Origin: a virus
Lineage: Duplodnaviria; Heunggongvirae; Uroviricota; Caudoviricetes
DNA length: 64,000 nt
Virus record (IMG/VR): IMGVR_UViG_2913177423_000001
Span: 1-64,000 of that record
Reading direction: 5' to 3' (one strand)
Each line of letters begins with the position of its first letter. Positions within the stretch are counted from its first letter, which is position 1. Shown one piece after another: positions 1-64,000 of the stretch. Position numbers and translations under genes: made by a program. The notes under the pieces are model-generated. The model had not been told where the DNA came from. It was given only the letters and a program-made list of their open reading frames with translations, and searched no databases.

Positions 1-4
1 CGAG

Positions 5-30
5 TTCTCTTAAACCAAGGTTTAAGATTA
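5..30. other. hix/gix/cix-like DNA-invertase crossover site
   Basis: 26-bp near-palindrome TTCTCTTAAACCAAGGTTTAAGATTA with AAACC-AA-GGTTT core typical of hix/gix sites; overlaps the stop codon of the adjacent invertase gene. Confidence 0.5.
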
Positions 31-609
31 AAAGGATGATGCCGGAAACTTTTTATAAAGCGTGGATACAGCAACATCATAGATAATTGCAATCTGCTTA
101 CGTGAGATGCCATTTTCCAGTAAACGGCGCATTTGCTGCCATGTTTCCTCTGGATATTTAGGCCGACGGCCTCCTATTCGGCCCTCTGCGCGAGCTGCAT
201 CAAGCCCGGCGCGAGTGCGCTCAATGATTAGTTCGCGCTCCATTTCAGCCAAGGCACCCATAACATGGAAGAAAAAACGCCCCATTGGTGTGCTGGTATC
301 GATGGAATCAGTGAGACTACGGAAATTAATGCCTCTGTCACGCAACTCTTCAACCAGCACAACCAGGTGGCGCATACTGCGCCCAAGCCTATCCAGCTTC
401 CAGACAACCAAAGTATCTCCTTCCGATAGTGTGCGTAGAACCTTTTTTAAACCAGGTCGATCGGCATTTTTCCCACTCGCCTTGTCCTCGAAAATTAGCT
501 CACATCCTGCGCATTCAAGCGCATTTCTCTGTAAGGCGGTGTTTTGGTCATTTGTTGATACGCGGATGTAACCAATAAGCATGTGCCTCCCCTTATATAT
601 GAACGGCAT
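28..609 (-). CDS. cin: serine recombinase, Hin/Gin/Cin-family DNA invertase
   Basis: 193-aa ORF; N-terminal GYIRVSTNDQ catalytic-serine motif, resolvase core VWKLDRLGRS, C-terminal HTH; close resemblance to P1 Cin and Mu Gin. Confidence 0.9.
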   Translation of the reverse strand: MPFIYKGRHMLIGYIRVSTNDQNTALQRNALECAGCELIFEDKASGKNADRPGLKKVLRTLSEGDTLVVWKLDRLGRSMRHLVVLVEELRDRGINFRSLTDSIDTSTPMGRFFFHVMGALAEMERELIIERTRAGLDAARAEGRIGGRRPKYPEETWQQMRRLLENGISRKQIAIIYDVAVSTLYKKFPASSF

Positions 610-672
610 TTTAGTTGGGAAATAACAAACTGGATAAGTTTAAGCGGCGTTAAACGTCATTTCTGGAGGGGT

Positions 673-999
673 ATGTTTGCAGATTATGAAAATCTGGCTG
701 TAGCAGTCATAACATCCCTGCTAAGTGGAACCGGTGTATTCCTTCTCGGGGTTAGGGACGGACGTATTTCTGCGTCACTGCTCAATCTCGCGAGTGAATT
801 GTTTACTGCGGTGACTGCCGGGCTTGCGGGGTTTTGGGTGGCGGATAGCTATGAATGGCCTGAAGGCATCATTTACTGCGTTGTTCTGATTGCCAGTAAC
901 AACGGTAGTGAAATTTTACAGGGCTTGAAGTCCAGAGCTAGCAACGTTTTGAATCTCTTAAGCGTAATAGCGAATGGGGGAAAAGGTGGAGAGAAATAA
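673..999 (+). CDS. small membrane protein, holin-like (position comparable to P1 lydA)
   Basis: ATG at 673 preceded by GGAGG; hydrophobic segments and charged C-terminus; the track start at 583 would overlap the invertase gene. Confidence 0.4.
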   Translation: MFADYENLAVAVITSLLSGTGVFLLGVRDGRISASLLNLASELFTAVTAGLAGFWVADSYEWPEGIIYCVVLIASNNGSEILQGLKSRASNVLNLLSVIANGGKGGEK

Positions 1000-1445
1000 T
1001 GGGTAACTTTGGGAATTATTTCATTTTTATCATGGCGTTTGTTGCCATCATTGACCGTTTCATTTTTCGTCGCAAGAGTGTTGAAATTTTGAGTATTGGT
1101 GACGCTGTAGTGAAAGAATCTGCTATCGCATTTCCTGTTTCGCTACGTGTTAAGCGAAGCTGGGTTAGCAATGCTCAAATCGAATATTGGCTGCAAGACC
1201 TGAAAAATCCATCTGTGGTTATTTCAGGGAAAACGCGACCAGTTGACGCTTCAAAACGCGGGGAGAGAGAAGAGTATTTGCTCATTGATACGAAATATCT
1301 TGAGCCAACGAAGTGGGATCTGAAAGTCACATTGACTAACGGTAACTGCCGACTGAATCCGCTTTATCGCATTTTCCCTATCAATGACTGCATAGAGCGC
1401 CAGTTTACGATCGAAAAACGTGAAGGAGACTGGAATGTCGAATAA
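999..1445 (+). CDS. hypothetical membrane-anchored protein (antiholin-like position)
   Basis: 148-aa ORF with N-terminal hydrophobic helix; start overlaps upstream stop. Confidence 0.4.
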   Translation: MGNFGNYFIFIMAFVAIIDRFIFRRKSVEILSIGDAVVKESAIAFPVSLRVKRSWVSNAQIEYWLQDLKNPSVVISGKTRPVDASKRGEREEYLLIDTKYLEPTKWDLKVTLTNGNCRLNPLYRIFPINDCIERQFTIEKREGDWNVE

Positions 1446-2052
1446 GGCTAATTATGTTCTTCTTAATTATGATGAGTTAAACGAAAAGGGACTGGCAAAA
1501 CTCGTCAAAGAAATCAGCAAAGGTGGTTACAAGATAGCGAGGGTGATCCCTGCCAGCAATGGCAGGAAGAAAGATGGGATCATGACACGCACGTTTACCC
1601 TTGTTGGTATTGATGAACAGACAATGGAAGTCCAGGTTAACGATACCGGAGATATATCTGGGATAAAACTGAACGGTAAAACAGTACCGTTCAAGCCAGT
1701 AAAAACAATGGCGGCTTTGGGGCAGTCTCTCGCGGCTTTATTTAATCGCGGAGCAACATCTTTCCAGAAATCATTAGCTCGAAAACTTGCTCGTGCAGCA
1801 AAAAATATTGATGAAGGAAATAAGAAGCGACAAGGGGTTAAATCCAACGCTCAGAAGTTAGCTGAAGCGAAAGAATCACGTGATGCGCTTCGTGAAGATA
1901 TCGCTAATGCTAACGACAAACTGGCTAAGATCCAAAGCAAGTCAGACAAGGCAATGCAAGATGCGGATAACGTTAAAGCGGCATTGTCTCAGGAACAAGC
2001 TAAGACGCGTGCGCTTAAAGAAGAAATCGCGCGTCTGGAGGATGAAGCATGA
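1435..2052 (+). CDS. hypothetical protein with C-terminal coiled coil
   Basis: ATG at 1435 with AAGGAG 6 nt upstream; Lys/Ala/Glu-rich C-terminus; stop overlaps next gene. Confidence 0.55.
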   Translation: MSNKANYVLLNYDELNEKGLAKLVKEISKGGYKIARVIPASNGRKKDGIMTRTFTLVGIDEQTMEVQVNDTGDISGIKLNGKTVPFKPVKTMAALGQSLAALFNRGATSFQKSLARKLARAAKNIDEGNKKRQGVKSNAQKLAEAKESRDALREDIANANDKLAKIQSKSDKAMQDADNVKAALSQEQAKTRALKEEIARLEDEA

Positions 2053-3998
2053 TTAAGAATCCCATACGGATCAATATTCAATCTACTTTCGCTGATACGA
2101 TTCCCGGTTATACACCGAGCCGCTGGTCTTCGGAGGATTTAAGTGAAGATGATCTGATTTTTGAAGCGGCTACATTAGAAGATATCGAGCTTGCCTATAT
2201 GGGCAATGAAATTCTTGTTGTGTCCGACGAAGCTATGTTTGAGGCCATTACTACGACCAGAATTAGGCTTGCACAAACAATGCGGGCTTTCGTGCGTGCG
2301 CTAAATCGTGGCTTGAATGGAACGAATATATCAGCAGGAACTGATGAAGCCGGGGCGGATGAAAATGGTCGGAATTGTATTGGCGGAGCAATTATCGGGC
2401 GTGTTCGTCGCGTAGCTAATATTCCTGTTTTAACAGCACAGATACCACTGACTGATGGGCAAAGCACAAGTATCATCTTCCACTCTCCAACCGCCGATGG
2501 CGCGAAAATCAAGAGTAATGATGAACTGGTTGCATTTCAGTTTTTACTTAATAAGCGTAACGTAACTCACGTTGTTGCCCCGATCGGCGGGAGAGATGTT
2601 TCTTTAAGCCAGGTTTGCCAGGCGCTTTCTAATTTGATTGAGCGTAACAGCGCAAAATTCAAGAAGGCAAAAGAGCGACAGGACAAAATGAAGGCGGATA
2701 TTGAGAGTTATCTCAATGAAGCTGATAAGCTGGCTGAAGAACGGTCAATGATGATTGAGCGGGTGGAAGTAGCGCAGCGTGGACTGACAGAAAAGCGCAA
2801 TGCCCTCGCGGAAATGCAGAAACAACTTGATGCACAGAAAGTCCTTAACGCAGAGTTGCAGGAAAAACGAGATAAGTTGCTGTCTTATAAAAAGAATAAA
2901 GCAAAAGAAAGAACTTTTAATGACCAACTTCGACACGTAAAACATAACCTTGCCACTGATGGTAAAACTACGCTGGATAACGGCGCTGTTGTAAATTATG
3001 TGACGTTAGATGGTGATAGCTTCGTTACGATCGCGGCACCAGAAGGTAATTTCAGTATTGATGTCGGTGACGTCAAAGGTGGCAGCCTGGCAGACGCGGC
3101 AACCAAACTACTTAAAGCCTATCGAGAACATAATGCTGATAAATACAAAGTAGATGTGTTGCCAGGACAGCCGGAGCCAACTGTTCAGTCACAGCCAGAA
3201 TTACAACAAGATTCTGATCCACAACCAGCATCTCCGCAAGATACTCAGCATGTAGGCAAATACCGCTATGCTCTTCAATCGCGCCCGGCGGGGGTTGGTG
3301 CGGTGCCGGATGGAAATACAGCCGTGCTTGACCGTCCCGACCAGGCTGACCCGTATTACGAGTATGCTCGTTACGGGATCATTACGTATGACCGTAAACT
3401 GACAGATGAAGAAGTCAGTCAGTATGAATTACGCTATCTACCTGATGACGATGAACTGAAAAATATGGCGGGGGAACTGGTTGCGTCCAGCATGGCAAAA
3501 CACATTGATGGCTATGTAGACCTGTTTGGCAGTGACTTGAAAACATTCAAGGCGCAAGTAAAAATTCTTTTCCGCAAAGAGTTTCCGAACGTGGCTTATC
3601 CGCTTGGTGATGGGGAGAACCTTTTCATTATGGACGTATATAACGCCCTTCAAAATCATTCAAACGAAGCAACGCCAGAGCCTGAATTAGCACCTGTAGT
3701 TGAGCCAGAATCACACCCACAAACAGAACCAGAGCAACAGCCAACGCCGGAAGATGCTGGAGAAGCGGCAACTGAAGCTGATCAGGAAGCAGATAAAGCG
3801 TTGGAGTACCTTAAATCCGTCCCGGTGCAGTTTACATCCCGCGATCTGACGGTAATCAGTGCCGAACTTGACCATGTGCAGGAAGCTGCAAACGCTCTTA
3901 TCAGTGCTGGTCGATACGACGAGAACGAATCAACGGTTGGCGCAGCAGTTGACTACCTGATCAACATTCTGGCTGAAATTCAGCAGGGAGGTGCTTAA
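2049..3998 (+). CDS. large acidic coiled-coil protein, possible DarA-like head-internal protein
   Basis: 649-aa ORF coupled to upstream gene; size and position after invertase and lysis-like genes recall the P1 darA operon; no motif-level confirmation. Confidence 0.5.
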   Translation: MIKNPIRINIQSTFADTIPGYTPSRWSSEDLSEDDLIFEAATLEDIELAYMGNEILVVSDEAMFEAITTTRIRLAQTMRAFVRALNRGLNGTNISAGTDEAGADENGRNCIGGAIIGRVRRVANIPVLTAQIPLTDGQSTSIIFHSPTADGAKIKSNDELVAFQFLLNKRNVTHVVAPIGGRDVSLSQVCQALSNLIERNSAKFKKAKERQDKMKADIESYLNEADKLAEERSMMIERVEVAQRGLTEKRNALAEMQKQLDAQKVLNAELQEKRDKLLSYKKNKAKERTFNDQLRHVKHNLATDGKTTLDNGAVVNYVTLDGDSFVTIAAPEGNFSIDVGDVKGGSLADAATKLLKAYREHNADKYKVDVLPGQPEPTVQSQPELQQDSDPQPASPQDTQHVGKYRYALQSRPAGVGAVPDGNTAVLDRPDQADPYYEYARYGIITYDRKLTDEEVSQYELRYLPDDDELKNMAGELVASSMAKHIDGYVDLFGSDLKTFKAQVKILFRKEFPNVAYPLGDGENLFIMDVYNALQNHSNEATPEPELAPVVEPESHPQTEPEQQPTPEDAGEAATEADQEADKALEYLKSVPVQFTSRDLTVISAELDHVQEAANALISAGRYDENESTVGAAVDYLINILAEIQQGGA

Positions 3999-4366
3999 TG
4001 ACTATCTCTGTTTTAGACCGTCTGAAATTGGGTAAAGAGCTATCAGATTTAATGCAGGCGCAGAAAACCGCGCCAGTATTACAACGCGTCGCAATTGGTA
4101 AGCAGATTGTTGATCTGATGCTTAAGCTGGGGCTGGGTGCTGCCGCTCAACCGATATCGGAACCGCAACCACAGTCTGATCCTGTTGCAGATGAAGTTCC
4201 TAAGATAGTGACTGACTTCTTGGGCGGTGTGTTCACAAAGTCGACACAAATGGAATTTATTGATGCGCTGCGTGGGATCTCAAACTATGTTGGCGAGTTC
4301 CTTACGTTGGAGCAGGCTAAAGAGCAGACCATCGGTTGGGTTAAAGCCAACGGATATGCCGGGTAA
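3998..4366 (+). CDS. hypothetical protein (122 aa)
   Basis: ATGA-coupled to the upstream gene; same operon. Confidence 0.55.
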   Translation: MTISVLDRLKLGKELSDLMQAQKTAPVLQRVAIGKQIVDLMLKLGLGAAAQPISEPQPQSDPVADEVPKIVTDFLGGVFTKSTQMEFIDALRGISNYVGEFLTLEQAKEQTIGWVKANGYAG

Positions 4367-4370
4367 TCAA

Positions 4371-4392
4371 AAGGGGCTGAAATGCCCCTTTC
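4371..4392 (+). terminator. putative intrinsic terminator or attenuator
   Basis: hairpin AAGGGGC-tgaaat-GCCCCTT just after stop of 3998..4366; weak U-tract. Confidence 0.4.
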
Positions 4393-4460
4393 ACTTATCT
4401 GTTCTCACATAAATCACACACTTTTTACACTTCCAGCTTTCTCTATAGGGGGAGTGTATT

Positions 4461-5846
4461 TTGAACAAGTCAGTTACTTCTGCGCTTTCCGAGGCCGCAG
4501 ACATTAACAGCGTCATTGCTCTGGTTTCTTCATTAGAGAGGAAGGAAACACGCCTGGGGCGAAGTAGCTACGTAGTCACCAGCAAAGGCGCAGAGGTAAA
4601 GACAGCTTTTAAGGTTGTTGATGCCAGTAGCCTAATCATTTCGAATAACCTTGACGGTACGATTAACACTGCATTCCCGGAAGAACTCCAGCCACGTGAT
4701 CGTACACGTCTATCTAGCAAACTTCAGGTTAACCGTATTGCCTCCAATTTACGCCCAGCACAATTAACGGATTCAGGAATGAGTAGCCACGGAGCGCCAA
4801 TAGTTGGGCCTGACAACGTTGTTGAATCTGGTAATGGAAGGAGTATGGGGATCTGGCGCGCCTATGAGCAAGGACAGGCAGATGAATATCGCCAGTACCT
4901 GATCGACCATGCGAAAGAGTTTGGTCTGAATCCTGACGAAATTTCGCAAATGTCTATGCCCGTACTGGTGCGTGAAAGACTCACTGATGTAGATCGTGCG
5001 CAGTTCGCTCGCGATTCCAACATAAGTGATCTGCAAGAGATGGCGGCGAGTGAGAAAGCGTATGCTGATGCGCAATTCCTCACTGAGAGCGTCATGGCGC
5101 TATTTAATCCTTCAGAAGATGGAAATCTACTGGCGCGGTCCAATGATGCTTTTATTCGTGCGTTTTTGCGCGAAATAGGCGATACCGCGACGGCGGGTTT
5201 GCTTACTGCCGATGGGCGCCCTACGAAACAGCTGATCGACCGCATCCAGAATGCGATTTTTGCCAAAGCCTACAAAGATGAGCGACTGGTCCGGTTGGTG
5301 GCGGAAGAGCCAGATCCGGAAATGCGTAACATCCTGACCGCACTCAATACGGCAGCCAGCGATTTTGCGCAAATGCAGTCGCTGTCTGGCGACGTTCACC
5401 ATGACGCCGTAACTGGTTTAGTGGACGGTATAGAGCAGGTTAACGGTCTGGATACACAGGCAATTGCGGCACTCCAGGAAGCAATCAATCTTGTTCGTGA
5501 AGCCAAAGACAACGGTCAGGCCGTTGAAGAAGTGATCGCCCAAAGGGGGTTATTCGGCGACAGCACGCCAGAAGCAGAGGCGTTGGCGCTATTCATCGTA
5601 GCAAATAATCGTAGCGCGAAGCGTATGGGGGCAGCATTCAAAAAAATGGCGCAAAAAATCAACGACGAGCTGATTCATAAACAACAGGCGCTTGGCGATA
5701 TGTTCGGTGGTGAAGAAGTCGATTTGCGCAGTATTTTGTCTGTTGTTTCTGATGAAATTGAGGCTGAGTTTGGTGAAGGGAAAGGTCTGAACTTTGCTAT
5801 GTTCGAAAATTCTACAGCCCTAAATAATTGCAGTACGGAAAACTAA
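4461..5846 (+). CDS. hypothetical protein (461 aa), possible virion-associated protein
   Basis: long ORF; TTG start at 4461 preceded by GGGGGAG; no recognisable catalytic motif. Confidence 0.55.
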   Translation: MNKSVTSALSEAADINSVIALVSSLERKETRLGRSSYVVTSKGAEVKTAFKVVDASSLIISNNLDGTINTAFPEELQPRDRTRLSSKLQVNRIASNLRPAQLTDSGMSSHGAPIVGPDNVVESGNGRSMGIWRAYEQGQADEYRQYLIDHAKEFGLNPDEISQMSMPVLVRERLTDVDRAQFARDSNISDLQEMAASEKAYADAQFLTESVMALFNPSEDGNLLARSNDAFIRAFLREIGDTATAGLLTADGRPTKQLIDRIQNAIFAKAYKDERLVRLVAEEPDPEMRNILTALNTAASDFAQMQSLSGDVHHDAVTGLVDGIEQVNGLDTQAIAALQEAINLVREAKDNGQAVEEVIAQRGLFGDSTPEAEALALFIVANNRSAKRMGAAFKKMAQKINDELIHKQQALGDMFGGEEVDLRSILSVVSDEIEAEFGEGKGLNFAMFENSTALNNCSTEN

Positions 5847-52656: not shown

Positions 52657-52680
52657 AAAGGCGGTTATCCCGCCTTTTAT
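52657..52680. terminator. bidirectional intrinsic terminator
   Basis: AAAGGCGG-ttatc-CCGCCTTT between convergent genes. Confidence 0.7.
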
Positions 52681-52681
52681 A

Positions 52682-53419: not shown

Positions 53420-53480
53420 ATAAACAATCAAACCTTCTTATCTTTATTTTTGGTAAAGGCGGTCATCCAGACCGCCAAAC

Positions 53481-53840: not shown

Positions 53841-53843
53841 GAT

Positions 53844-54146: not shown

Positions 54147-54176
54147 CACAGATTCCTTCTCTCTGAAAGCAGAGTA

Positions 54177-54222
54177 GTCCCAATATGGGACAATGTAAAG
54201 CACTTTAGTCCCATGCTGGGAT
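54177..54222. promoter_or_regulatory. tandem palindromes, candidate HigA operators
   Basis: GTCCCAATATGGGAC and GTCCCATGCTGGGAT directly upstream of higB. Confidence 0.45.
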
Positions 54223-54291
54223 ATGAATTGAAATCACAATCTCCAGACAATGCACCTTCGATACCTGATACATCGACCTTTGAGGATGCTT

Positions 54292-55083
54292 ATGGGCCGT
54301 TTTGACGAATGGTTTGCTGACGATGCAAACCTGGTAAGTAAGGAGTCAGAACATGACAGCACGCAGAGAGAAACGCCAGCGCCGATTGAAGAGGATGCAG
54401 GAGGCGCGCCGGAACATGGCAATACCGGATCGGATTCATTCAGCATTCTGGAAGAGCAATCCACCGCCGAAGCTGATCGCCATGATAATTTCCCTGGTAG
54501 CGGCGGTAGTTTTACTCCGGACACTGGAGAACCTGATATAGCCATTCTGCCATCTTCCCTGGCAGGCAGAGAACCAACTCCACAGCTAAAAACACGCTAT
54601 AACGGGCATAAAGCCTTTAACGACCAGATCCGTGCTGACTGGATGTTAATTATTGAATCCAGCCCAGACGCGTTCCAGGCGCTCTTATACCGACCTGATG
54701 TCGGCACATATGGCGTGGTCAGCGACGAAACTGGAGAAGAGTCATTCACTGAACTGGATAACAACCAGCGCGAACTGACTTACCAGGAACCTGAAATCGT
54801 TTATGTGCTGGATAACCCTGATGGGCGTGACTCTTTCCATGCTCTTGACTCAGACGGTGAGCAGGACGGTCTGACTGATGACGTCCTTATTCTGCGAATC
54901 GCCGCAAATAACGTACCCGTCGGCTCAATTCTTGAGTGGAATGAAGAGATGGCAAATGGTGTAGCTCGCCGCTGGTGGTATGTACACCGTATTTTCAGTT
55001 ACGGCACACAGCATGTCGGCTCGCTTTACTACTGCATACCCGCAAGAAACTTTGATACGACTCAGAATGGGGTGATCGAGTAA
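54292..55083 (+). CDS. hypothetical acidic protein
   Basis: ATG at 54292 after GAGGA; Asp/Glu-rich; first gene of a rightward structural-like block. Confidence 0.45.
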   Translation: MGRFDEWFADDANLVSKESEHDSTQRETPAPIEEDAGGAPEHGNTGSDSFSILEEQSTAEADRHDNFPGSGGSFTPDTGEPDIAILPSSLAGREPTPQLKTRYNGHKAFNDQIRADWMLIIESSPDAFQALLYRPDVGTYGVVSDETGEESFTELDNNQRELTYQEPEIVYVLDNPDGRDSFHALDSDGEQDGLTDDVLILRIAANNVPVGSILEWNEEMANGVARRWWYVHRIFSYGTQHVGSLYYCIPARNFDTTQNGVIE

Positions 55084-55847
55084 TGTCAAACAATACCCTC
55101 CTGGCGCGGATCGGCGAATGGCAGACAACACGCACAGGGAAATTCCAGACTACTGGCCTTGAGAGCGTGGATAACGCGTTCGCTTCGCTCATTAGCAACA
55201 TTTTTTCAGATATCTTGCTGGTGGAACCTACGCGAGAAGAAAAGCGTTTTGCATCGTTTCTGAATCGCCCACCAGCCGAACGTGTTTACGTGGCTCGTTT
55301 CGATAATGCTATTGAGTTTCTTAAAGCCGTGCGCCGCGCAAATGCCGGGCAAGGAAGAAAACCGGAAAACCAGAACATTAATCGCGATGCCTTGCCGTTG
55401 ATCAACATCTCCCGGTCTATGGATATCAGCTATATCAATGATGATCAGCAGATAGACCGCAGGCAAACTGCCAGTTTTTGCAACCCGGATACTGGAATGC
55501 CTTTAGCGACTCTGGAATACACCCAGGCTATCCTGACTTATGACGTTACGTTAATGGCTACTGATAAAGCAACCATGAGTCTGATGTGTAATTCGCTGGG
55601 CGCGCGGCTCCGCCTGATGACCGGAACACAATTTGAGGCAAACACTAACCTGGTGCGTGTTCCTGTTCCTCTGATTTGCTCCATTCAGGATGCTAAAGAC
55701 GTTGGATTTACGGATGTTTCGGCACCCGTGGGAGAAGAGAGGATTTATGCTACTCAGGCACCTGTAAGCGTCATTGCGGATGTAATCACAGCCTGGGAAT
55801 TGGACGCGAAACGCGTTGTTACTGAAACCTCGCTGGCTATGGGGTAA
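55083..55847 (+). CDS. hypothetical protein, possible tail/baseplate component
   Basis: ATGA-coupled within the same block as the spike-like gene. Confidence 0.4.
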   Translation: MSNNTLLARIGEWQTTRTGKFQTTGLESVDNAFASLISNIFSDILLVEPTREEKRFASFLNRPPAERVYVARFDNAIEFLKAVRRANAGQGRKPENQNINRDALPLINISRSMDISYINDDQQIDRRQTASFCNPDTGMPLATLEYTQAILTYDVTLMATDKATMSLMCNSLGARLRLMTGTQFEANTNLVRVPVPLICSIQDAKDVGFTDVSAPVGEERIYATQAPVSVIADVITAWELDAKRVVTETSLAMG

Positions 55848-55850
55848 TCA

Positions 55851-56831
55851 ATGTCCCAGGAGTTACAACAATACTTCCTCCAGTCAGTCACAATTAACGA
55901 TAACAAAGTGCCACGAGACTGGATTTTTACCGCAGTGTACGTGGAAAAGAGCAGCCTTAAAGCGCCGTTATTGAAGCTGGAAATTCATGACATGACAGGC
56001 ACCATAATTGATGACTGGAAAGCTAAATACGGTGCATCGCTGGTGGCTGAAATGGGCGATCCAAACGGTAATGCTGGCACTTTTAAAACAACTTTTTTTG
56101 TTACGTCAGCAATGCTGGCTGGGGATGTAGTTACCGTTATTGCGGTCAGTGAAGACGTGCATCGGTTTAAGATCCCCTCCCCTCGCACCAATCTACACAC
56201 GAACAAAACGCCGGACACCATATTCAAGGCGTATAGCGGCAATCTTAAAATTTCCAGCAGTGTCCTAAAGCGTGCGGTTACATATCACCTGAACGCAGGC
56301 GACAAGCCGTCAAAAATGCTCTCAGAGATAGCACGCGACAAAGGTGCATTGTGTTGGGTCTGCCGGGGAGAATTTAACTTTTACACCCTGGCTGATCTGA
56401 TGAAGCAAACTCCATCCTTCACCTACGAAGGTAATAATCCACAAGCGAAATACACCTTGTCAAAAATGCGCATGATTCAACAGGAACATGCGACAACAGC
56501 AAAGAATCAGTACCGTTTTGTGGGCTATTCCATGACTGATGGTTATATCGAATATGGCGATAGTTCCCTGCCTGTACGTTACATATCCGATTCCGATATG
56601 GAAACTCTTCGCAATATGCAGCTGTCTCTCGTCCCCAAAATGGATATAGAAGTTGCAGGCAATCCGGATATAAAGCCAGGAATGCTGATAGAGATTCTTG
56701 TATACCGTTATGATCAAGAAAACCGTATCGATGAATCAATGCCACGTAAGCTCATAGTGAAAAACGTCGCTCACTTTGAAGATCGTATAGGCTACACAAC
56801 CAGAATGATATTAGGAGTGCCAAATAAGTGA
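55851..56831 (+). CDS. putative baseplate hub protein (gpD/Mu gp44-like position)
   Basis: 326-aa ORF immediately upstream of and overlapping the gpV-like spike gene. Confidence 0.35.
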   Translation: MSQELQQYFLQSVTINDNKVPRDWIFTAVYVEKSSLKAPLLKLEIHDMTGTIIDDWKAKYGASLVAEMGDPNGNAGTFKTTFFVTSAMLAGDVVTVIAVSEDVHRFKIPSPRTNLHTNKTPDTIFKAYSGNLKISSSVLKRAVTYHLNAGDKPSKMLSEIARDKGALCWVCRGEFNFYTLADLMKQTPSFTYEGNNPQAKYTLSKMRMIQQEHATTAKNQYRFVGYSMTDGYIEYGDSSLPVRYISDSDMETLRNMQLSLVPKMDIEVAGNPDIKPGMLIEILVYRYDQENRIDESMPRKLIVKNVAHFEDRIGYTTRMILGVPNK

Positions 56832-57481
56832 AGCGTAGAGCGCAGATAGTAGGAACCGAACACCCGGCAGGACTCATGCGCGCTCAGGTTCGAATTTTAC
56901 CTGACTGGAATGGAGTTCCCGACGATGATCTCCCCTGGGCAGAATACCAGTTACCCATAGGTAACGCGTTTGTACCTACAGTAAAAGGCGACCTGGTATG
57001 GGTAGAGTTTCCTTATCTGGATGTTAATGGTCGAATTGATACCAGACGCCCAATGATAGTTGGCGCGGCTCAGGATGCGCCTGGTGGAGTACCAAACGTC
57101 GCGCCGGAGGCGTCAGGCAATGGTAGCGGCTGGACGCCACCTGAAGTAGACGGAGCGCCTCCCCGCCCGCAATTTTCGGCGACAAAAGATTTCGTTATTC
57201 ACCGCAACAATGTGCTCGAAGTGCGAACGGTTGGCGGTGGATATGAAATAGCGAATACGGCAGCAGGCTCAAGGATAGGAATGAATGAATCAGGGCAGAT
57301 ATACATCATTGGCCCGGCTGATGTAGTAGTGAATGCGGGAGGGAGTGTTAACGTCAAATCAGCCGATAACATCAGCGTTAATGGCAAAAACATTTCTGTG
57401 ACAGCCGACGAAAATATTGATTTCAAGGCAGGAGGCACCTTCCAGGCTATCGCAAGCAACTTTGATTTCAAGAAGGGATAG
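56828..57481 (+). CDS. baseplate spike protein, gpV-like
   Basis: N-terminal OB-fold pattern QVRILPDWNGVPDDDLPWAEYQLPIGNAFVPTVKGDLVWVEFPYLDVNGR typical of phage baseplate assembly protein V. Confidence 0.5.
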   Translation: MKRRAQIVGTEHPAGLMRAQVRILPDWNGVPDDDLPWAEYQLPIGNAFVPTVKGDLVWVEFPYLDVNGRIDTRRPMIVGAAQDAPGGVPNVAPEASGNGSGWTPPEVDGAPPRPQFSATKDFVIHRNNVLEVRTVGGGYEIANTAAGSRIGMNESGQIYIIGPADVVVNAGGSVNVKSADNISVNGKNISVTADENIDFKAGGTFQAIASNFDFKKG

Positions 57482-57490
57482 AAAACACAT

Positions 57491-57536
57491 CCAATTGTGT
57501 TAGATAATTGAATAGAATTTTCTAACACAATTGGTG
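57491..57536. promoter_or_regulatory. large palindrome containing an inverted pair of C1-like operator motifs
   Basis: CCAATTGTGTTAGATAATTGAATAGAATTTTCTAACACAATTGG directly upstream of rdgC-like gene. Confidence 0.55.
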
Positions 57537-57540
57537 AAAC

Positions 57541-58446
57541 ATGAGATCTGTCGCTTTCAAAAACATCTTCATCTATCGTCTTTCACGTGAAGTTAACTGG
57601 AGTGCCGCAGAAGTATCCGATGCTCTTAGCAAATTCGTGTTTACTCCTTGCGGTTCTCAGGACACAGCTAAAGTCGGTTGGACACCTGTTCTTGGTGACA
57701 ACCTCACCCATGAATACCAGGGTTTTCTGCTAATACAGCATAAGCGAGAAGAAAAAATTCTCCCTTCGCAGGTGCTCAAGGAAGAGTTGCAGAAAAAAGT
57801 CCTGAAACTCGAAGAAGAGCAAGCACGCAAGCTGAAGAAAACGGAAAGAGACAGTCTTAAAGATGAAGTCCTGCATTCCCTTTTGCCTCGCGCGTTCACG
57901 AGAAAATCACTCGCCAAAATCCTGATCGACCGCAGCAACCATCTGGTATTCGTTGAGGCAAGCAGCGCCAAAAAGGCAGAGGATCAGCTGGCTTTATTGC
58001 GAAAATCGCTCGGCAGCCTGCCCGTCATTCCATTCACACCACGCGAACCGCTGGAAATCACAATGACCGAGTGGTTTAAAAACGGCTTCCCTGCCGGATT
58101 CACAGCAGGTGAAGATGCCACATTAAAGGCTCTGTTTGATGATGGTGGTGCCGTTCGCTGCAACAAAGTTGATCTACAGTCCGACGAGATTATGTCTCAC
58201 ATTGAGGCGGGGAAAGTAGCTACGACCGTTGCAATTAACTGGATGGACCGCGCGTCGTTCAGAGTAAACGATGATATGAGTATCAAAGCCCTGACATTCT
58301 GTGATGATCTCTATGACCAGAATGACGATATCGACCGGGAGGATGTAGCACAACGATTTGATGCTGATTTCGTGCTCTTTACGGGCGAATTATCTGCACT
58401 GTTTAACGCGCTGGTGGAGGCCATTGGCGGTGAAGCAGAACGATAA
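57541..58446 (+). CDS. rdgC: RdgC-like recombination-associated protein
   Basis: 301 aa; colinear with bacterial RdgC including [33 protein letters not shown] and [20 protein letters not shown]. Confidence 0.8.
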
Positions 58447-59110
58447 TAACCGACCGCTTGTTGTGAGTGTGTGTGATTTTACGGGGGGAATGGTTGCCCC
58501 CTGGCTGGAATACGGTGTCGATGCCGCTATCGTCGATCCACAGCACTTATCGACCAGTGACGAGCTGATGCAATCAGGTGCCGTTCTGACGCGTATTAGT
58601 GCGATCATCGATAGCGATGAAGTATACGCTTTTCTCCGTAAGAATTTGCAGCGCATCGTGTTTCTGGCCGGGTTCCCACCGTGTACTGACCTGGCTGTTT
58701 CCGGCGCGCGCTGGTTTTCGGACAAGGCTAATAAAGATCCGGTCTTCCAGTTCAAAGCAATGCAGGTTGTCTGGCAGTGTTATGACATTGCAAAGATGAT
58801 CGGTTGTCCGTACATGATTGAAAATCCGGTCAGCAAAATATCGACATTCTGGCGTAAGCCAGATCACATCTTTCACCCTTACTTCTTCACTGCATATTGT
58901 CAGGAAGATAACTACACCAAAAAAACATGCCTCTGGAGCGGCCAGGGCTTTGTCATGCCTGATGCCCTAATGGACGAATCATTAGGCAAGCCAGATAACA
59001 GAATCCATGCCGCGCCACCAGGGCCTGACAGGGCTAATTTTAGAAGTGCTACTCCACATGGATTCGCAAAGGCAGTTTTCGAAGCGAATAAGGGGGTGCT
59101 CTATGAGTAA
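58430..59110 (+). CDS. short C5-cytosine methyltransferase-like protein
   Basis: GTG at 58430 after GGAGG; motif I-like CDFTGGM, catalytic PPC motif [15 protein letters not shown]-like MIENP; lacks a normal target-recognition domain. Confidence 0.5.
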
Positions 59111-60008
59111 ATCTATAGCAAGCATAGCCATAGAAAAACGGGATACGATGGCTGAAATTAGCTATATGCGCACCATTCGGACTCCGGATGAATATGAGCG
59201 TCCGATCTTCAAATGGGTAGGTGGTAAATTCTCAGAATTGCCTACAGTGCTTGAGCATCTACCACACGGCAAGCGGTTAATAGAACCGTTCGTTGGTGGC
59301 GGTTCCGTATTTACGAATGCAGGATTTCGCCACAACCTGCTTAATGATATTAACGGTGACCTGATTAACTTCTATCAGACATTGCAGCGGGAAGGACATT
59401 CGCTCGTCACGCTGTCATATAGTTTTTTCAAAAATTACAACAACGCTGACGCTTACCTCGAAGTGCGTGAGGCATTTAACAGAGGAAAGTATGACCAGCT
59501 ACATCATGCTGCCGCCTTTTTGTACCTTAATCGGCACTGTTTTAATGGCGTAACACGGTACAACCAAAATGGCGATTTCAACGTGGGGTATGGCAAATAC
59601 AAAGCGCCCTACTTCCCACATGCAGAGATGGAGGCGTTTTTGGCTGATGACGTACTCAAAAACACATCCTTTGTATCAGGTGACTTTGCTGGCGTCATCG
59701 AGGCGGCTGGTGAAGACGATGTGATTTTTTGCGATCCGCCGTATGAACCGCTGCCGGATACAGAGGGATTTACCAGCTATTCAGGAAATAGCTTCCGTTT
59801 CGATGAACAAAAAAGGCTTGTATCACTGTTGGTGGCTGCCCACCAGCGCGGCGCGAAGGTAGTGATAACAAACAGTGGCGCGCCCAAAATTCGCGAATTG
59901 TACGAAAGAAACGGTTTTAAGCTGTACCACATGCCAGCCAGACGGTCCGTGTCATGCAAAGCATCCACGCGAATAGTCGCTAACGATATCATTGCAACGC
60001 TCAAATAG
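59103..60008 (+). CDS. dam: Dam-family N6-adenine DNA methyltransferase
   Basis: ATG at 59103 overlapping upstream stop; FKWVGGK, FVGGGSV and DPPY motifs. Confidence 0.85.
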   Translation: MSKSIASIAIEKRDTMAEISYMRTIRTPDEYERPIFKWVGGKFSELPTVLEHLPHGKRLIEPFVGGGSVFTNAGFRHNLLNDINGDLINFYQTLQREGHSLVTLSYSFFKNYNNADAYLEVREAFNRGKYDQLHHAAAFLYLNRHCFNGVTRYNQNGDFNVGYGKYKAPYFPHAEMEAFLADDVLKNTSFVSGDFAGVIEAAGEDDVIFCDPPYEPLPDTEGFTSYSGNSFRFDEQKRLVSLLVAAHQRGAKVVITNSGAPKIRELYERNGFKLYHMPARRSVSCKASTRIVANDIIATLK

Positions 60009-60031
60009 AAAAAGCCCCAGGCGGGGCTTTT
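60009..60031. terminator. bidirectional intrinsic terminator
   Basis: GCCCC-agg-CGGGGC flanked by A-run and T-run between convergent operons. Confidence 0.7.
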
Positions 60032-60069
60032 GATGCCGATACAGTGTCAATTTGATATCAATATGGTTG

Positions 60070-60135
60070 TATATTAACACCATTACGGCACCACTTTGAC
60101 ACCATTATTGCACCGGTACATGATAGACACCAATG
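60070..60135. repeat. iteron-like ACACCA/GCACCA repeats downstream of ParA/RHH cassette
   Basis: AACACCATT, GGCACCACT, GACACCATT, GCACCGG, GACACCAAT within 65 bp. Confidence 0.45.
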
Positions 60136-60151
60136 AGGCATCAAATCGGTA

Positions 60152-60436
60152 TCATTTTGCATCCTCTGACTCAGCAAGCATGAGGATGGCATGTCGAATC
60201 AGGTTCAATTTGCTGCGGTTAAGCTTTTTGCTTAACGCATCGAGCACCCCGTACTCATATTCATTAAAGCTCACGCGTATGGATTTAAAGTCACGCGGCG
60301 CATCTTTATCTGGAGTTTGAGTTGCAGCCTCAACGCCCGGCACCAAATCGGCTTTAATGGCGAACTCTTCAATGCGGCGCTCTAGTTCAGGGTCTTTTAC
60401 AGCTTGTGCATTCACTGGCTCACGGCGCTTAATCAC
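60152..60436 (-). CDS. ribbon-helix-helix partition protein, ParG-like
   Basis: 94 aa; flexible N-terminus then RHH-like KSIRVSFNEYEYGVLDA; coupled downstream of ParA-like gene. Confidence 0.55.
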   Translation of the reverse strand: MIKRREPVNAQAVKDPELERRIEEFAIKADLVPGVEAATQTPDKDAPRDFKSIRVSFNEYEYGVLDALSKKLNRSKLNLIRHAILMLAESEDAK

Positions 60437-61065
60437 GATAACAACTCCTTAATCAACATCTGGATCTCGCCCTTTGCTTTCCCGTTGTCCATTTCAACAA
60501 CACCCTTCCCTTCTGCCATGCAGTCACGATAAATCTTACGGTCACGGACGACAGTTTTCAGGAGTTCAAGTTGCGGGTATTCAGCAAGATATTCCCTTGC
60601 CTCATTGGCTTCGTTAACGACCGGGTTGGATGGTGCCATAGTCAGCATGGCATACGCCTTAAGTTTAGGGTTGAAATCCATCGCCTCAGCTATAACCTCA
60701 ACAAGGTGCGGTAGAGTATCCAGATCCGGCTGGGAAGGACGGAACGGCACCAGAAGCACATCTGCCGCTGTCATGCCTGTACGCATCTCACGACTGTCGC
60801 GACCAGCAGTATCGACGACAACGTACTCGTAACGTTTATCCAGATCGAGCAGCGTCTCACGAATATTATCGAACTTCTGCACGCAGTGAATGACAGGGGC
60901 AACCTCACCTGCATTACGGTCTGACGCCCATCGAGCTGCCGTTCCCTGTTTATCAGCATCAATCAAGACGACATCTTTGTTTTTTCGGGCCAGCTCGGCA
61001 CAAATATTGACGCTGGTGGTTGACTTGCCACAGCCTCCCTTTTGACTTGCTACCAGGATAATCAT
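60433..61065 (-). CDS. small ParA-family partition ATPase
   Basis: deviant Walker A KGGCGKST at N-terminus; 210 aa. Confidence 0.8.
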   Translation of the reverse strand: MIILVASQKGGCGKSTTSVNICAELARKNKDVVLIDADKQGTAARWASDRNAGEVAPVIHCVQKFDNIRETLLDLDKRYEYVVVDTAGRDSREMRTGMTAADVLLVPFRPSQPDLDTLPHLVEVIAEAMDFNPKLKAYAMLTMAPSNPVVNEANEAREYLAEYPQLELLKTVVRDRKIYRDCMAEGKGVVEMDNGKAKGEIQMLIKELLS

Positions 61066-61142
61066 GTCCGCACCTCGGCTTTATTACGGCTCTATTTTCA
61101 CACTAAAACAGTACCGATTTAACACATCAACGGTACAGCAAT

Positions 61143-61305
61143 AGCACCATTCTTAATGCCAGGAGTATAACATCAAATCCGATGGATACTGGTACACGTT
61201 TTGCGCCTGAATAGCACTAAATTAGCACCAAATATGCACCAGTACATTAACAACACCAATTCGGCGTTGTTTTGGTGCCACTTCAACACCATTTTGACAC
61301 CAAAA
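61143..61305. repeat. iteron-like GCACCA/ACACCA repeat array upstream of ParA-like gene, candidate centromere
   Basis: at least seven copies of (A/G)(G/A)CACCA(A/T)T in direct and inverted orientation. Confidence 0.5.
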
Positions 61306-61310
61306 CTGAA

Positions 61311-61336
61311 CAAAAAAGGCTGCAATTTGCAGCCTT
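61311..61336 (-). terminator. intrinsic terminator of parMR operon
   Basis: GGCTGCAA-t-TTGCAGCC palindrome followed on the minus strand by TTTTTT. Confidence 0.6.
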
Positions 61337-61354
61337 AAGATAGTGTATGAACCG

Positions 61355-61699
61355 TCAATCAGGTAGAGAGTCAGCCAGATTGCGCGCCGACGCGCTTTTG
61401 GCAACAACTTGCTCCTTCACTGGCTCAATGGAGGCAGGTCGCTCTTCAACCGCAGCAGGTAGTTCCAGGAAGGACGCCAGCATTTTTCGGATCAGATCCG
61501 GGTTATTGTCTTCGGTTAGCAGGGAAGCCAGTAATCCTGGAAGCCTGCTATCGACTTCTCCCAGCGCAAGCCCTGCCAACAATGCAGTTCTTGCCATATC
61601 GCTATGTTTTTTTATCTTCTCGCTCGCCGCCTTTTCATTGGCATAAGCCTCTGGGCGAAGATAAATCATCACTTTCTTACGTTCCTGAGACATGGACAT
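61355..61699 (-). CDS. parR: ParR/StbB-like centromere-binding protein
   Basis: 114-aa ORF immediately downstream of parM-like gene. Confidence 0.55.
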   Translation of the reverse strand: MSMSQERKKVMIYLRPEAYANEKAASEKIKKHSDMARTALLAGLALGEVDSRLPGLLASLLTEDNNPDLIRKMLASFLELPAAVEERPASIEPVKEQVVAKSASARNLADSLPD

Positions 61700-61705
61700 A
61701 CCTCG

Positions 61706-62662
61706 TTAACCGATTGCTTTCAGGCCATGAACAAGAGCAAGTTGCGGGTCATCCGCCACGAAGAAACGGTCATCGCGAATATTAACTTGCTCGCGAATTG
61801 CATCAGCCACCAGTGGTGCGCCGCCACCGATCACCATGACATGCGTATATCCTTTAAAGTCGCCAATCACATCAAGAACGCGGGTACGCAGACGGTCAAT
61901 ACTTGCAGCAATGGCCTTTTTCACATCACCAATAGCTGATGGGTCATTGATATTGTCGTTCAGATAATCTTCATCGTGGCGGTTAATAATGAGCTGATCG
62001 ACATTGTAATTTGACGTTTCGGTATTGGCTCTGGCAAGTGCTTGCCTTACTTCCCTGGTAACCAGAGAGACGCCAAGATTCGAATCGCCAAAAACACGGG
62101 AAACTGCCGTCATTTGCCCGGCGACCATTGAAACATCAAGGGTAGTTCCACCCAAATCGACGATAAGAACAGAGTGGGCAGGGTTCAGATTGTCGCACAG
62201 GCCAATTCCTGCCGGAATAGACTCCGGGCGTACCGTAACTTTCTTAATCGTGAACACATTGCCTTTATTCAGCGTGACGGGGCGCATAAGGCTGGCTTTT
62301 TTGCGCTCGATGTTATCGAGATTGTATTGCGCGTCGTCGTCGTAAAACTCCGCCAGAGGCAGCGTGACCACGATTTCTACTTCCTGCGGCTCAATGCCAC
62401 TGGTCAGCAAAGCATGGTGAACAGCCAGGACGTTAAGCGGGCTGTATTGCCATTCCACGTTATTCGTCGGCAGAACATCTGGCGAGATCAAATCATACGA
62501 ATACTTTTCGTCGTCAATGACATAGTTAAACGGCTTGCCAGCACCAAATGTTGCGGACCAGCCGCGCTTAAAGCTGTTAGGACTGATGTGCGTGCGAGTT
62601 TCCCCGTCGTGTTCCCACAGCATTTTGATATTTGTTGAACCATCGTCGATAAAAATGCGCAT
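61706..62662 (-). CDS. parM: ParM/StbA actin-like partition ATPase
   Basis: MRIFIDDGSTNIKMLW phosphate-1 motif, DLGGTTLDVS, VMVIGGGA; ATG at 62662. Confidence 0.9.
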   Translation of the reverse strand: MRIFIDDGSTNIKMLWEHDGETRTHISPNSFKRGWSATFGAGKPFNYVIDDEKYSYDLISPDVLPTNNVEWQYSPLNVLAVHHALLTSGIEPQEVEIVVTLPLAEFYDDDAQYNLDNIERKKASLMRPVTLNKGNVFTIKKVTVRPESIPAGIGLCDNLNPAHSVLIVDLGGTTLDVSMVAGQMTAVSRVFGDSNLGVSLVTREVRQALARANTETSNYNVDQLIINRHDEDYLNDNINDPSAIGDVKKAIAASIDRLRTRVLDVIGDFKGYTHVMVIGGGAPLVADAIREQVNIRDDRFFVADDPQLALVHGLKAIG

Positions 62663-62687
62663 CTTCTTGCTCCACTTCTGAGACACA

Positions 62688-62850
62688 TTTGAGAATCAAA
62701 TCATGATTTTAAAAGAGAAGGAATCGAAAATCCACACAATTCGAGATGAAAGAGAGTCGTTATTGAGATTATTTTGAGAATATCTTTAACCACTTTCTGG
62801 GTTTGATGCAAAGGTGAGAACAATTCGAGAATAAAACGAGAATTTTAAAT
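62688..62850. repeat. parC-like centromere repeats upstream of parM
   Basis: five or more copies of TTYGAGAAT (TTTGAGAATC, ATTCGAGATG, TTTTGAGAAT, ATTCGAGAAT, ACGAGAATT). Confidence 0.5.
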
Positions 62851-62927
62851 ATTTCGTGATTTCACTCTCTCTTTGAGTGACGAAATAACAAAGTGATGAC
62901 AATAGGCGAATAACCAGGAGATGAAGA

Positions 62928-63212
62928 ATGAGCGCAATAGCCACCAGCGACACACTTTGTTCCGGTCACGGAGGATTCCCGCCGCGGCTGGTTGCTGAAA
63001 CCGTTCCCTGGTTCACCGTCAACGGTAAGCCAGTTGTTGTGGATGGTGCCATGTTCCCCAGCCATACAGACGGTAACAGCACACATCCGGGATCGGCTGT
63101 ATCGACGCGGGCATGGTATTCAATAGGTGGAAAGGGAGTCGTCTGCGTAGGCGATCCGCTTTCTTGTGGTTCTGTTATCGCCAACGGCGAGGATATTTTT
63201 CAGGTCGCATAA
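62928..63212 (+). CDS. PAAR-like spike-tip protein
   Basis: 94 aa, Gly/Cys/His-rich with GDPLSCGS motif resembling PAAR-repeat proteins. Confidence 0.4.
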   Translation: MSAIATSDTLCSGHGGFPPRLVAETVPWFTVNGKPVVVDGAMFPSHTDGNSTHPGSAVSTRAWYSIGGKGVVCVGDPLSCGSVIANGEDIFQVA

Positions 63213-64000
63213 TGCTTGATTCAATAGGTGAAGTTAAAGCCTTCCAAATTCTGTCCGGCGCTGGTGCCTCCACACCGGAATCAATATCCATAAGCCGGGC
63301 GGCTTCTTCAAAAGCTTCGTCACTCGCAAGCGACATACAGGAAATGGTTCATCCTGATAAAACCTATCCTGATTCAGTGTCTGCCTGGACGACTCAATTG
63401 CTTGGATTTTCCGAACAACTCAATGAGGCAAGCAAGGCATCATCAGCCCTGGCTGACTCTCTTTCCCCATACACGACGCCATCAGAGCTGTTACAGATGA
63501 AGATTGGCTGGGAGTGCCACGCAAAAGGTAATGAACTGATCCCCACGCCAGCGTTCGCCCTGGTTGAGGGGATGGGGAATGTTTCCATACCGCAATCACT
63601 AACGGACGCATTGGCGGCGCTGAAACTTGACGATCTGAATACCGCCATGAACGCCATAAACGCAAAAATTGAAGCTGCCGGGAGTGCTGGGGGTGATAGT
63701 GATGGTGGACAGGCTGGTGGTGGGGCAGCTCAGGCTCCGGACATTACTCAGGATGAAATTGATGATTTACGGGAAGCTGTAACAGTAGCTGAAGTTTCAC
63801 TCTCCGGGATTAATTCAGCAAGTGAGAGTGTCGTAGCCCTTGCTGACCGCATTAAAACGTCAACAACTCAGGCCGCCAAGGGGCTAGAGAACGCTGTAGC
63901 CATCACCTTAACAGGTTCTCTACTGGGCGATGCAGTAATGAGTCCGGCAATCAGTTTAATCATGCCACAAGGCGTTATCGATGCGCTCCAAAAGAGCACC
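63212..64000 (+). CDS. hypothetical protein, partial (runs off the window end)
   Basis: ATG overlapping upstream stop; open frame to position 64000 with no stop; not in the ORF track because incomplete. Confidence 0.5.
   Translation, partial: MLDSIGEVKAFQILSGAGASTPESISISRAASSKASSLASDIQEMVHPDKTYPDSVSAWTTQLLGFSEQLNEASKASSALADSLSPYTTPSELLQMKIGWECHAKGNELIPTPAFALVEGMGNVSIPQSLTDALAALKLDDLNTAMNAINAKIEAAGSAGGDSDGGQAGGGAAQAPDITQDEIDDLREAVTVAEVSLSGINSASESVVALADRIKTSTTQAAKGLENAVAITLTGSLLGDAVMSPAISLIMPQGVIDALQKST

Follow-up and report, generated by a model that had tools for sequence, protein, structure and literature searches.

A 64-kb viral DNA stretch very probably derived from a D6-like phage-plasmid, the sister group of phage P1

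Introduction

The 64,000-nucleotide stretch of DNA analysed here, called the window throughout, covers positions 1 to 64,000 of the IMG/VR virus record IMGVR_UViG_2913177423_000001 (Caudoviricetes) and carries, from a DNA invertase gene at its one end to a cut upfB gene at its other end, genes for lysis, anti-restriction, packaging, immunity, recombination, partition and tail assembly. An initial annotation, made from the sequence alone, had described P1-family gene content in rearranged order and had proposed a distinct phage-plasmid lineage. Comparison with reference genomes leaves little doubt that the window is a stretch of a D6-like phage-plasmid, subgroup P1-g2 within the P1 community. 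Members of the D6-like group are temperate myoviruses which reside as low-copy circular plasmids in Escherichia and Salmonella; the D6 type is the sister group of phage P1, and the window represents about two thirds of such a plasmid-borne temperate phage.

D6-like phage-plasmids were first described in 2018 (Gilcrease & Casjens 2018, cited in PMC6799933 and PMC7969092). D6-like plasmid prophages have been described in Salmonella Typhimurium ST213, among them the p75 variant, a defective or truncated D6-like plasmid (PMC6799933). As far as the D6/P1 comparison is summarised in a later paper, D6 possesses two c4-icd regions and no lxc, parM/stbB in addition to parA and higBA in addition to phd/doc, and carries glnS and tciAB as morons (Gilcrease & Casjens 2018, via PMC6799933). 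In 2021, the P1 community was split into P1-g1, the group of P1, and P1-g2, 'closely related to D6', with a gene-repertoire relatedness of about 0.75 within and 0.23 between the two subgroups, with partition and replication genes separated in P1-g2 and with phd/doc highly conserved in both (Pfeifer et al.; PMC7969092). According to a 2025 preprint in which clinical isolates were surveyed for the 'P1/D6 group', the common plasmid detection and typing databases do not cover D6-type elements (bioRxiv 10.1101/2025.09.12.675607).

Results

Collinearity with phage D6

When searched in three thirds by megablast against the GenBank phage records, the window has a single dominant match, Escherichia phage D6. 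A more sensitive comparison by blastn, with the entire window and the complete D6 reference (MF356679 / NC_050154; 91,159 bp, circular), aligns 53,940 of the 64,000 bases (84%) at a mean identity of 89.7%, and the path is one collinear track along the D6 reverse strand, composed of three blocks:

window 1-31484: D6 32165 down to 116
window 31591-49383: D6 91159 down to 72746
window 49975-64000: D6 72135 down to 55798

The window is D6 read backwards, from cixL/cin across the rox junction to upfB. The sole D6 segment beyond it, D6 32.2-55.8 kb (about 24 kb), holds the tail fibres, baseplate, sit, plasmid replication gene, tube, sheath and capsid; the D6 counterpart of the RepB-family plasmid replication initiator with iterons (D6 45841-46596) is situated in this segment outside the window.

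Equally, the comparison of proteins, for which 89 non-overlapping window open reading frames (ORFs) of at least 60 amino acids were considered, identifies a D6 counterpart for 73 ORFs (mean protein identity 86.7%, median 91.6%), which form effectively one run once the cross-match of a PacB paralogue is discounted. By tblastn of every annotated D6 gene, the D6 proteins map to the window in order at 75-99.7% identity, and the D6 homologues for structure, packaging, lysis and regulation that lie within the window all match over their full length and without frameshifts; the simB and pmgU homologues are partial. Common to the window and D6 are the gene order throughout, Dre/rox, a C1 protein of 345 amino acids, two c4-icd-ant modules, a small ParA besides ParM/ParR, methylases split into Dcm and Dam, and the position of repL, which follows pro and precedes the immunity module.

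By the convention of the International Committee on Taxonomy of Viruses, phages belong to one genus at a nucleotide similarity, calculated as aligned fraction times identity, of at least 70%, and 95% similarity is the usual species convention. For the window and D6 this product amounts to 0.84 x 0.897 = 0.75, over the 64-kb window rather than the whole genome, which over this length lies above the genus level and, at about 75%, below the at least 95% of a species. The element is thus probably a separate species from D6 inside one genus by the 95% convention, and it is a new member of a described lineage, not a new lineage. D6 itself is still listed in the NCBI taxonomy as an unclassified member of the Caudoviricetes. 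Rough repertoire relatedness values of about 0.71 to D6 and about 0.21 to P1, derived from one-way best tblastn hits where the published method is bidirectional, place the window in P1-g2.

Recombination, partition and toxin-antitoxin genes

The following features of plasmid maintenance were located in the window:

31575-31606 (+): rox recombination site, identical to D6 rox, as read from the D6 record, at 31 of 32 positions
31759-32787 (+): gene of a Dre-type tyrosine recombinase (cre homologue), 89.5% identical to D6 Dre and 42% to P1 Cre; Pfam Phage_integrase
53481-53840 (-): HigA-type helix-turn-helix antitoxin (D6 higA2 type); HTH_3; 98% identical to D6 orf72
53844-54203 (-): HigB toxin; PF09907 HigB_toxin, E 5e-34; no D6 counterpart
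60152-62927 (-): partition region
60152-60436 (-): 94-amino-acid partner of the ParA-type ATPase
60433-61065 (-): small ParA-type Walker ATPase; Pfam AAA_31/CbiA/ParA
61355-61699 (-): ParR/StbB; Plasmid_stab_B
61706-62686 (-): ParM/StbA; StbA_N and ParM C-terminal domain, E 1e-69 and 1e-55; 99.7% identical to D6 StbA
62687-62927: imperfect repeats upstream of parM

The rox site is located 150 bp upstream of the Dre homologue, so that a Dre-type recombinase with rox, a mark of the D6-like group, is found at the level of sequence and recombination activity is predicted. ParM and ParR are 98-99.7% identical to those of D6, and the ParM/ParR (StbA/StbB) partition system, set apart from the replication gene and another mark of the group, is likewise in place. 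Partition by ParM/ParR instead of ParA/ParB had already been read from the sequence; it is, however, not the sole partition-type system, as the small ParA-type ATPase and its partner adjoin, a pair annotated equally in the D6 record. The toxin-antitoxin genes differ from D6: HigB pairs with HigA2 in the window, whereas D6 has relE-higA1-higA2, and the D6 proteins Phd, Doc and PdcA have no tblastn match in the window, in which the D6 phd-doc-pdcA position corresponds to 35619-36773.

Comparison with P1 and P7

By blastn, 8,268 of the 64,000 bases (13%) align to P1, at 76% identity, and P7 and close relatives of P1 match, in the megablast search of GenBank phage records, short segments only, which for P7 are the same ones. 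As the alignment is limited to these short segments, the window is neither P1 nor P7, in agreement with the initial annotation. Segments 84-90% identical to P1 are cin, the c4 region, the tRNA-plp region and humD-hot (blastn). The window remains below the Punavirus similarity threshold (at least 70% nucleotide similarity to P1), and most P1 orthologues are 20-60% identical by tblastn, with a mean of 48.7% and a median of 43% to P1 proteins, the moderate identity that had been anticipated. Counterparts in P1, required to cover at least half of the ORF, exist for 39 of the 89 ORFs and are distributed over 19 collinear runs, or about 15 when paralogue and spurious matches are set aside; the gene order is not that of P1, as had been recognised. 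The recombinase is 42% identical to Cre, and the recombination site is, by its sequence, rox and not lox. P1 parA, parB and lxc have no match among the window ORFs, and homologues of res/mod, ban, ssb, lxc, kilA and sim A/C were not found in the window.

Every P1 hallmark gene listed beforehand was recovered at or near its place by tblastn against P1 and D6 and by Pfam. With P1 and P7 the window shares the same lifestyle and the common set of cin/cix, dar operon, darB, prt/pro, repL, c4-icd-ant, lpa, pacAB, c1, a Cre-family recombinase, ref, hot, humD behind a LexA box, dam and tRNAs, besides the baseplate genes 5, 6, 7, 24, 25 and 26. It differs from them by ParM/ParR in place of ParA/ParB, rox/Dre in place of lox/Cre and another operator sequence, and from P1 by an inverted orientation of prt/pro relative to the dar operon. 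Features that had appeared unusual against P1, namely the distance of about 12 kb between cre and ref (measured as 12.8 kb), ParM/ParR, and the immunity and repL block between pro and darB, are the arrangement annotated in D6. The apparent rearrangement is the ancestral gene order of the D6 lineage and is not specific to this element. Of the distinct diverged lineage initially proposed, the divergence from P1 holds; distinctness from anything described does not, as the window is collinear with D6 at 89.7%. The whole-genome comparison suggested as a check gave collinearity and high identity to a described P1-like genome, the very outcome that had been named as speaking against such a lineage.

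Immunity: repressor, candidate operators and antirepressor modules

The components of the immunity system are dispersed over the window:

9931-11115 (+): first immI-type module; RF03163 52.6 bits, RF01695 68.8 bits
9931-9983 (+): c4-a1b1 target of the first module; Rfam RF03163
10051-10136 (+): C4 antisense RNA of the first module; Rfam RF01695
10184-10408 (+): icd of the first module, 99% identical to D6
10408-11115 (+): Rha/Roi-type antirepressor of the first module; Phage_pRha and helix-turn-helix matches
30336-31373 (-): c1 prophage repressor of D6 type, 345 amino acids, 89% identical to D6 C1 and 20% to P1 C1
36774-37163 (-): humD, 89% identical to P1 HumD
37182-37201: LexA box, a perfect TACTGT-N8-ACAGTA, TACTGTTTATATATACAGTA
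37262-37513 (-): hot, full-length, 93% identical to P1 Hot
46709-48094 (+): second immI-type module, 83-93% identical to D6 orf82 and orf83
46709-46788 (+): isrK-like RNA (isrK Hfq-binding RNA) of the second module; RF01394, 61 bits
46812-46899 (+): C4 RNA of the second module; RF01695, 73.7 bits
46953-47168 (+): icd of the second module
47168-48094 (+): Rha-type antirepressor of the second module

C1 matches the NCBIfam model phage_rep_C1 weakly (E 1.6e-5), far below the curated cut-off. C1-type operators had been claimed initially; the window contains no copy of the P1 C1 operator consensus ATTGCTCTAATAAATTT when up to 3 mismatches are allowed, and what is present is a dispersed motif of different sequence, TGTGTTAGAAAATTA, recovered by a de novo k-mer search at 13 sites where 0.22 are expected in the window. 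The motif is asymmetric, extends to TGTGTTAGAAAATTA(ATTT) and has the extended consensus TGTGTTAGAAAATTAATTT. The sites are at 8620, 9823, 20274, 21317, 22567, 22723, 26958, 31389, 32791, 45503, 46159, 57496 and 57515, and 12 of the 13 are intergenic. Single sites precede repL, the first c4, pmgS, lpa, c1 and ref; two follow pmgS, ahead of the tRNAs; one follows dre, one is situated at the end of ref, and an overlapping inverted pair stands before hrdC-dcm-dam. C1 operators are annotated in the P1 record at corresponding genes (OrepL, Oc4, OpmgR, Olpa, Oref, Odmt and the divalent Oban), with Omat overlapping the end of ref, and D6 carries 14 copies of the TGTGTTAGAAAATTA motif. Probably the D6-type C1 repressor uses this motif as its operator. 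As its sites stand at promoter-proximal places that match the annotated P1 operators and as it recurs in D6, P1-style immunity, that is, one repressor with many scattered asymmetric operators, appears to be retained with a different recognition sequence.

The presence of two c4-icd-antirepressor modules together with the lack of an lxc match corresponds to the D6-like pattern (PMC6799933). The isrK-like RNA lies directly 5' of the second C4, and the first C4 is preceded by the c4-a1b1 target instead. The LexA box is located immediately upstream of humD, a position at which a LexA site is annotated in P1 too.

Lysis, packaging, morphogenesis and methylation genes

The remaining backbone genes are listed with their protein identities to D6 and P1:

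about 8-27, at the window edge: cixL crossover site, nearly identical to the P1 and D6 sites
28-609 (-): cin DNA invertase, 93% P1 Cin, 95% D6 Cin; Cin alignment 31-582
673-5846 (+): lydA, lydB, hdf, darA, ddrA and ddrB (lysis and Dar operon), 88-99% D6, 34-64% P1
5911-8605 (+): prt portal and pro head-processing protease, 97-99% D6, 42-50% P1
8806-9768 (+): repL lytic replication initiator, 92% D6, 30% P1
12414/12531-19367 (+): darB, 97% D6 (alignment from 12531), 43% P1
block 12414-19838 (+): ulx anti-restriction gene, after darB in this block, 92% D6, 49% P1
20241-22566 (+): pmgM, orf11, pmgR and pmgS, morphogenesis, 79-99% D6
27049-30310 (+): lpa late activator, pacA and pacB, 93-97% D6; Lpa 31% P1
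27438-28802 (+): pacA terminase gene, 20% P1
28802-30310 (+): pacB terminase gene, 56% P1
32862-35651 (+): orf117, orf116, dut (33676-34170), a Tad2-like gene and isaA (34878-35651), 94-97% D6 except the Tad2-like gene
45583-46161 (+): ref, RecA-dependent nuclease, 84% D6, 55% P1
50105-52648 (+): mat and the baseplate/tail genes 26 and 25, 96-99% D6, 32-56% P1
54250-57481 (+): tail and baseplate genes 7, 24, 6 and 5, 90-94% D6, 23-46% P1
57541-60008 (+): hrdC (RdgC family) and methylases, 95-98% D6
58430-59110 (+): cytosine methylase
59103-60008 (+): dam adenine methylase, D12 class PF02086, E 8e-56; 68% to the C-terminus of P1 Dmt
62928-64000 (+): upfC (PAAR-like) and upfB, the latter cut by the window end, 96% and 87% D6

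Within pacA, a search for TGATCA/G pac hexamers found a single site and no P1-style cluster. The P1 late-promoter consensus, built from the 11 annotated late promoters of P1, matches the window once where 1.4 matches are expected, which is chance level. Exact intergenic copies of TGAAATCAC, a candidate D6-type late box, occur at 5856, 54229 and 62856, before prt, before gene 7 and between parM and upfC; the one-mismatch set of this box is mostly intragenic, and the box is a weak lead.

tRNAs and accessory cassettes

Deviations from D6 are located in a few slots of the backbone:

23812-25516 (+): tRNA region (ARAGORN, Rfam)
23812-23888 (+): tRNA-Arg(TCT)
23893-23968 (+): tRNA-Thr(TGT)
23956-24297 (-): plp
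24387-24800: crAss001_48-like ORF (PF21825), specific to the window with respect to D6
25441-25516 (+): tRNA-Met/Ile2(CAT)
35641-36735 (+): PacB paralogue, 364 amino acids, terminase ATPase-like domain, phrog_5902
37535-45473 (-): mosaic block of small early and accessory genes (Ead/Ea22-like, ASCH-like, ClpX zinc-finger and others), partly shared with D6

By alignment, tRNA-Arg(TCT) has the acceptor, D and T arms of tRNA-Asn(GTT) of P1 and D6 and a different anticodon arm; a tRNA-Asn scaffold would now read AGA as tRNA-Arg(UCU). Exact copies of a 57-nt core that spans this anticodon arm occur in 17 IMG/VR contigs, and several of these contigs have the PacB paralogue as well. The neighbouring tRNA-Thr shows compensatory changes in its anticodon stem.

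D6 has tciAB, tRNA-Ser, orf23, orf24, glnS, relE-higA1, ppp, pdcB with neighbouring genes and phd/doc-pdcA, none of which is present in the window. Conversely, the window adds the HigB toxin, the PacB paralogue, the crAss001_48-like ORF, a 123-amino-acid ORF before darB and a full-length hot, has tRNA-Arg(TCT) in place of tRNA-Asn and carries different small early genes at 37.5-43.4 kb. These latter genes constitute a mosaic run of the lambdoid "ea" type with Pfam and PHROGs matches of unknown function, and most of 37216-43375 is without a blastn match to D6. The crAss001_48-like ORF also occurs in a few E. albertii and E. coli plasmids, and the 123-amino-acid ORF, absent from D6, is common to the E. 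coli plasmid pPSS-10_3. The slots differing from D6 vary equally among other D6-like plasmids and IMG/VR contigs, and the window-specific cassettes recur in other D6-like contigs; the differences from D6 are ordinary cassette exchange on a conserved backbone.

Two small proteins carry recognisable domains. A protein of 108 amino acids (43358-43684, -), encoded in the run of small early genes, is of the ClpX-type C4 zinc-finger kind (E 7e-18) and 78% identical to D6 orf93, and a protein of 228 amino acids (34185-34871, +) has a C-terminal Tad2-like domain (Thoeris anti-defence 2 / DUF2829; PF11195, E 1e-20), is 70% identical to D6 over the C-terminus and has an N-terminal half unlike D6 orf114. 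A search of ten unassigned proteins against the PADLOC defence-system models and NCBIfam returned nothing except the very weak C1 match.

The PacB paralogue

The PacB paralogue is 37% identical to residues 10-264 of the window's own PacB and has no nuclease domain. Where PacB has the Walker A sequence GHGTGKS and the Walker B sequence LDEAS, the paralogue has PHGIGRP, with Q or H for R in its relatives, and IVDSA; with the Walker A lysine and the Walker B glutamate lost, it is probably an ATPase-dead protein, judging from these motifs. The gene is located between isaA and humD in 16 IMG/VR D6-like contigs (12 at 97% identity or more, 4 at 64%), occupies the same position in pPSS-10_3 and has a 52% identical copy in two P1-like phages. 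It gave no Pfam, NCBIfam or PADLOC match and nothing meaningful in a PDB sequence search.

Relatives in sequence collections

Among the PLSDB plasmids, at least 96 span no less than 80% of window 1-25000, with 94-95% identity for the best ones, and the middle part of the window has matches in hundreds of plasmids of E. coli and Salmonella. The identity to the nearest records ranges from 88 to 95% on the nucleotide level; among IMG/VR contigs and PLSDB plasmids relatives were found and no identical record. In two separate searches the local gene order of the window recurred in 16 and 17 IMG/VR contigs. The closest whole plasmid examined is pPSS-10_3 (E. coli, NZ_AP027688.1), which is collinear and covers 86% of the window at 92.4% identity, a similarity of 0.86 x 0.924, or about 79%. 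This plasmid has the same PacB paralogue (WP_000201932.1) and the same ORF upstream of darB; it differs by the possession of phd/doc, relE/higA and a fused Dmt-like methylase and by the lack of the window's cin end and several early cassettes.

Discussion

By its likeness to D6 and P1, a working model of the element can be outlined from homology and anatomy. Lysogeny would be held by the distant C1-type repressor, probably acting at the approximately 13 dispersed asymmetric TGTGTTAGAAAATTAATTT sites at early-gene promoters, and would be opposed by two icd-antirepressor modules under control of C4 antisense RNA. Late genes might be switched on by Lpa and DNA packaged by a headful mechanism with PacA and PacB. 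Dre acting at rox is predicted to cyclise incoming DNA and to resolve plasmid dimers, segregation of the plasmid would be provided by ParM/ParR and possibly by the second small ParA system, and HigBA would serve as the addiction module in place of Phd/Doc. Host restriction might be countered by the Dar proteins and by the Dam and Dcm methylases, and humD is placed behind a LexA box.

Several observations weigh against the assignment to the D6-like group as set out here. No examined record is more than about 95% identical and the exact element is absent from the collections searched; approximately 16% of the window, mainly at 35.6-43.4 kb, is without a D6 counterpart; phd/doc, for which high conservation in both P1 subgroups is reported (PMC7969092), is missing; the search for a D6-type late promoter gave none that could be defined; and nothing closely related to the PacB paralogue was found in the representative-genome collection, which suggests that this collection does not include the genome from which the window comes. 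That C1 binds the TGTGTTAGAAAATTA motif is a prediction from the sequence, and plasmid maintenance and virion production are extrapolated from D6, as replication initiator and structural module lie beyond the window.

Read in another way, some of these observations, namely the 88-95% nucleotide identity of the nearest records, the 16% of the window not in D6 and the missing D6 genes phd/doc, glnS, tciAB, ppp and pdcB, could speak for a new phage-plasmid lineage distinct from P1, P7 and D6. Such a lineage is very improbable in the face of perfect collinearity with D6 over 73 shared genes with a median protein identity of 91.6%, of differences confined to cassette-type accessory slots that are variable in other D6-like plasmids too, and of window-specific cassettes that are found again in other D6-like contigs. 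Even harder to credit, to the point of being practically dismissed, is a variant of P1 or P7 (Punavirus) with recent rearrangements: the cin, c4, tRNA-plp and humD-hot segments at 84-90% identity to P1 would agree with it, but the alignment to P1 extends over only 13% of the window, identities of 20-60% prevail among the orthologues, a ParA/ParB homologue and the P1 C1 operator consensus are absent, and rox stands in place of lox.

More consideration is due to the reading as a D6-like plasmid, defective or truncated, that has lost the ability to make phage, like p75 of Salmonella ST213. Such variants exist (PMC6799933), the structural module lies beyond the window, and the simB and pmgU homologues are partial. 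On the other hand, the structural, packaging, lysis and regulatory D6 homologues inside the window are full length and without frameshifts, and the window begins exactly at cixL, as expected were the tail-fibre segment next, which makes a defective element unlikely. The reading as a stretch of a D6-like phage-plasmid of subgroup P1-g2 is therefore the one to which the element is assigned.

A further proposal concerns the rank below this group. The loss of phd/doc, the remodelling of tRNA-Asn to tRNA-Arg(UCU) and the conserved ATPase paralogue without Walker A lysine and nuclease might together define a sub-lineage of D6-like phage-plasmids, a speculative idea with rather poor prospects. If true, the 'pseudo-terminase' could be a new kind of packaging regulator or, alternatively, could serve in exclusion by poisoning the PacA/PacB complex of related phages that enter the cell.

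The significance of the finding lies in the correct filing of the record as a D6-like (P1-g2) phage-plasmid, with little significance beyond. Recognising D6-type elements has some value for surveillance, as common typing databases miss them (bioRxiv 10.1101/2025.09.12.675607). The conserved PacB paralogue, probably ATPase-dead, and the candidate non-P1 operator motif of the D6-type C1 are the only items possibly worth further work. For the biology of the D6 group, the element provides one more data point on the backbone slots in which toxin-antitoxin genes, tRNAs and small early genes are exchanged as cassettes.

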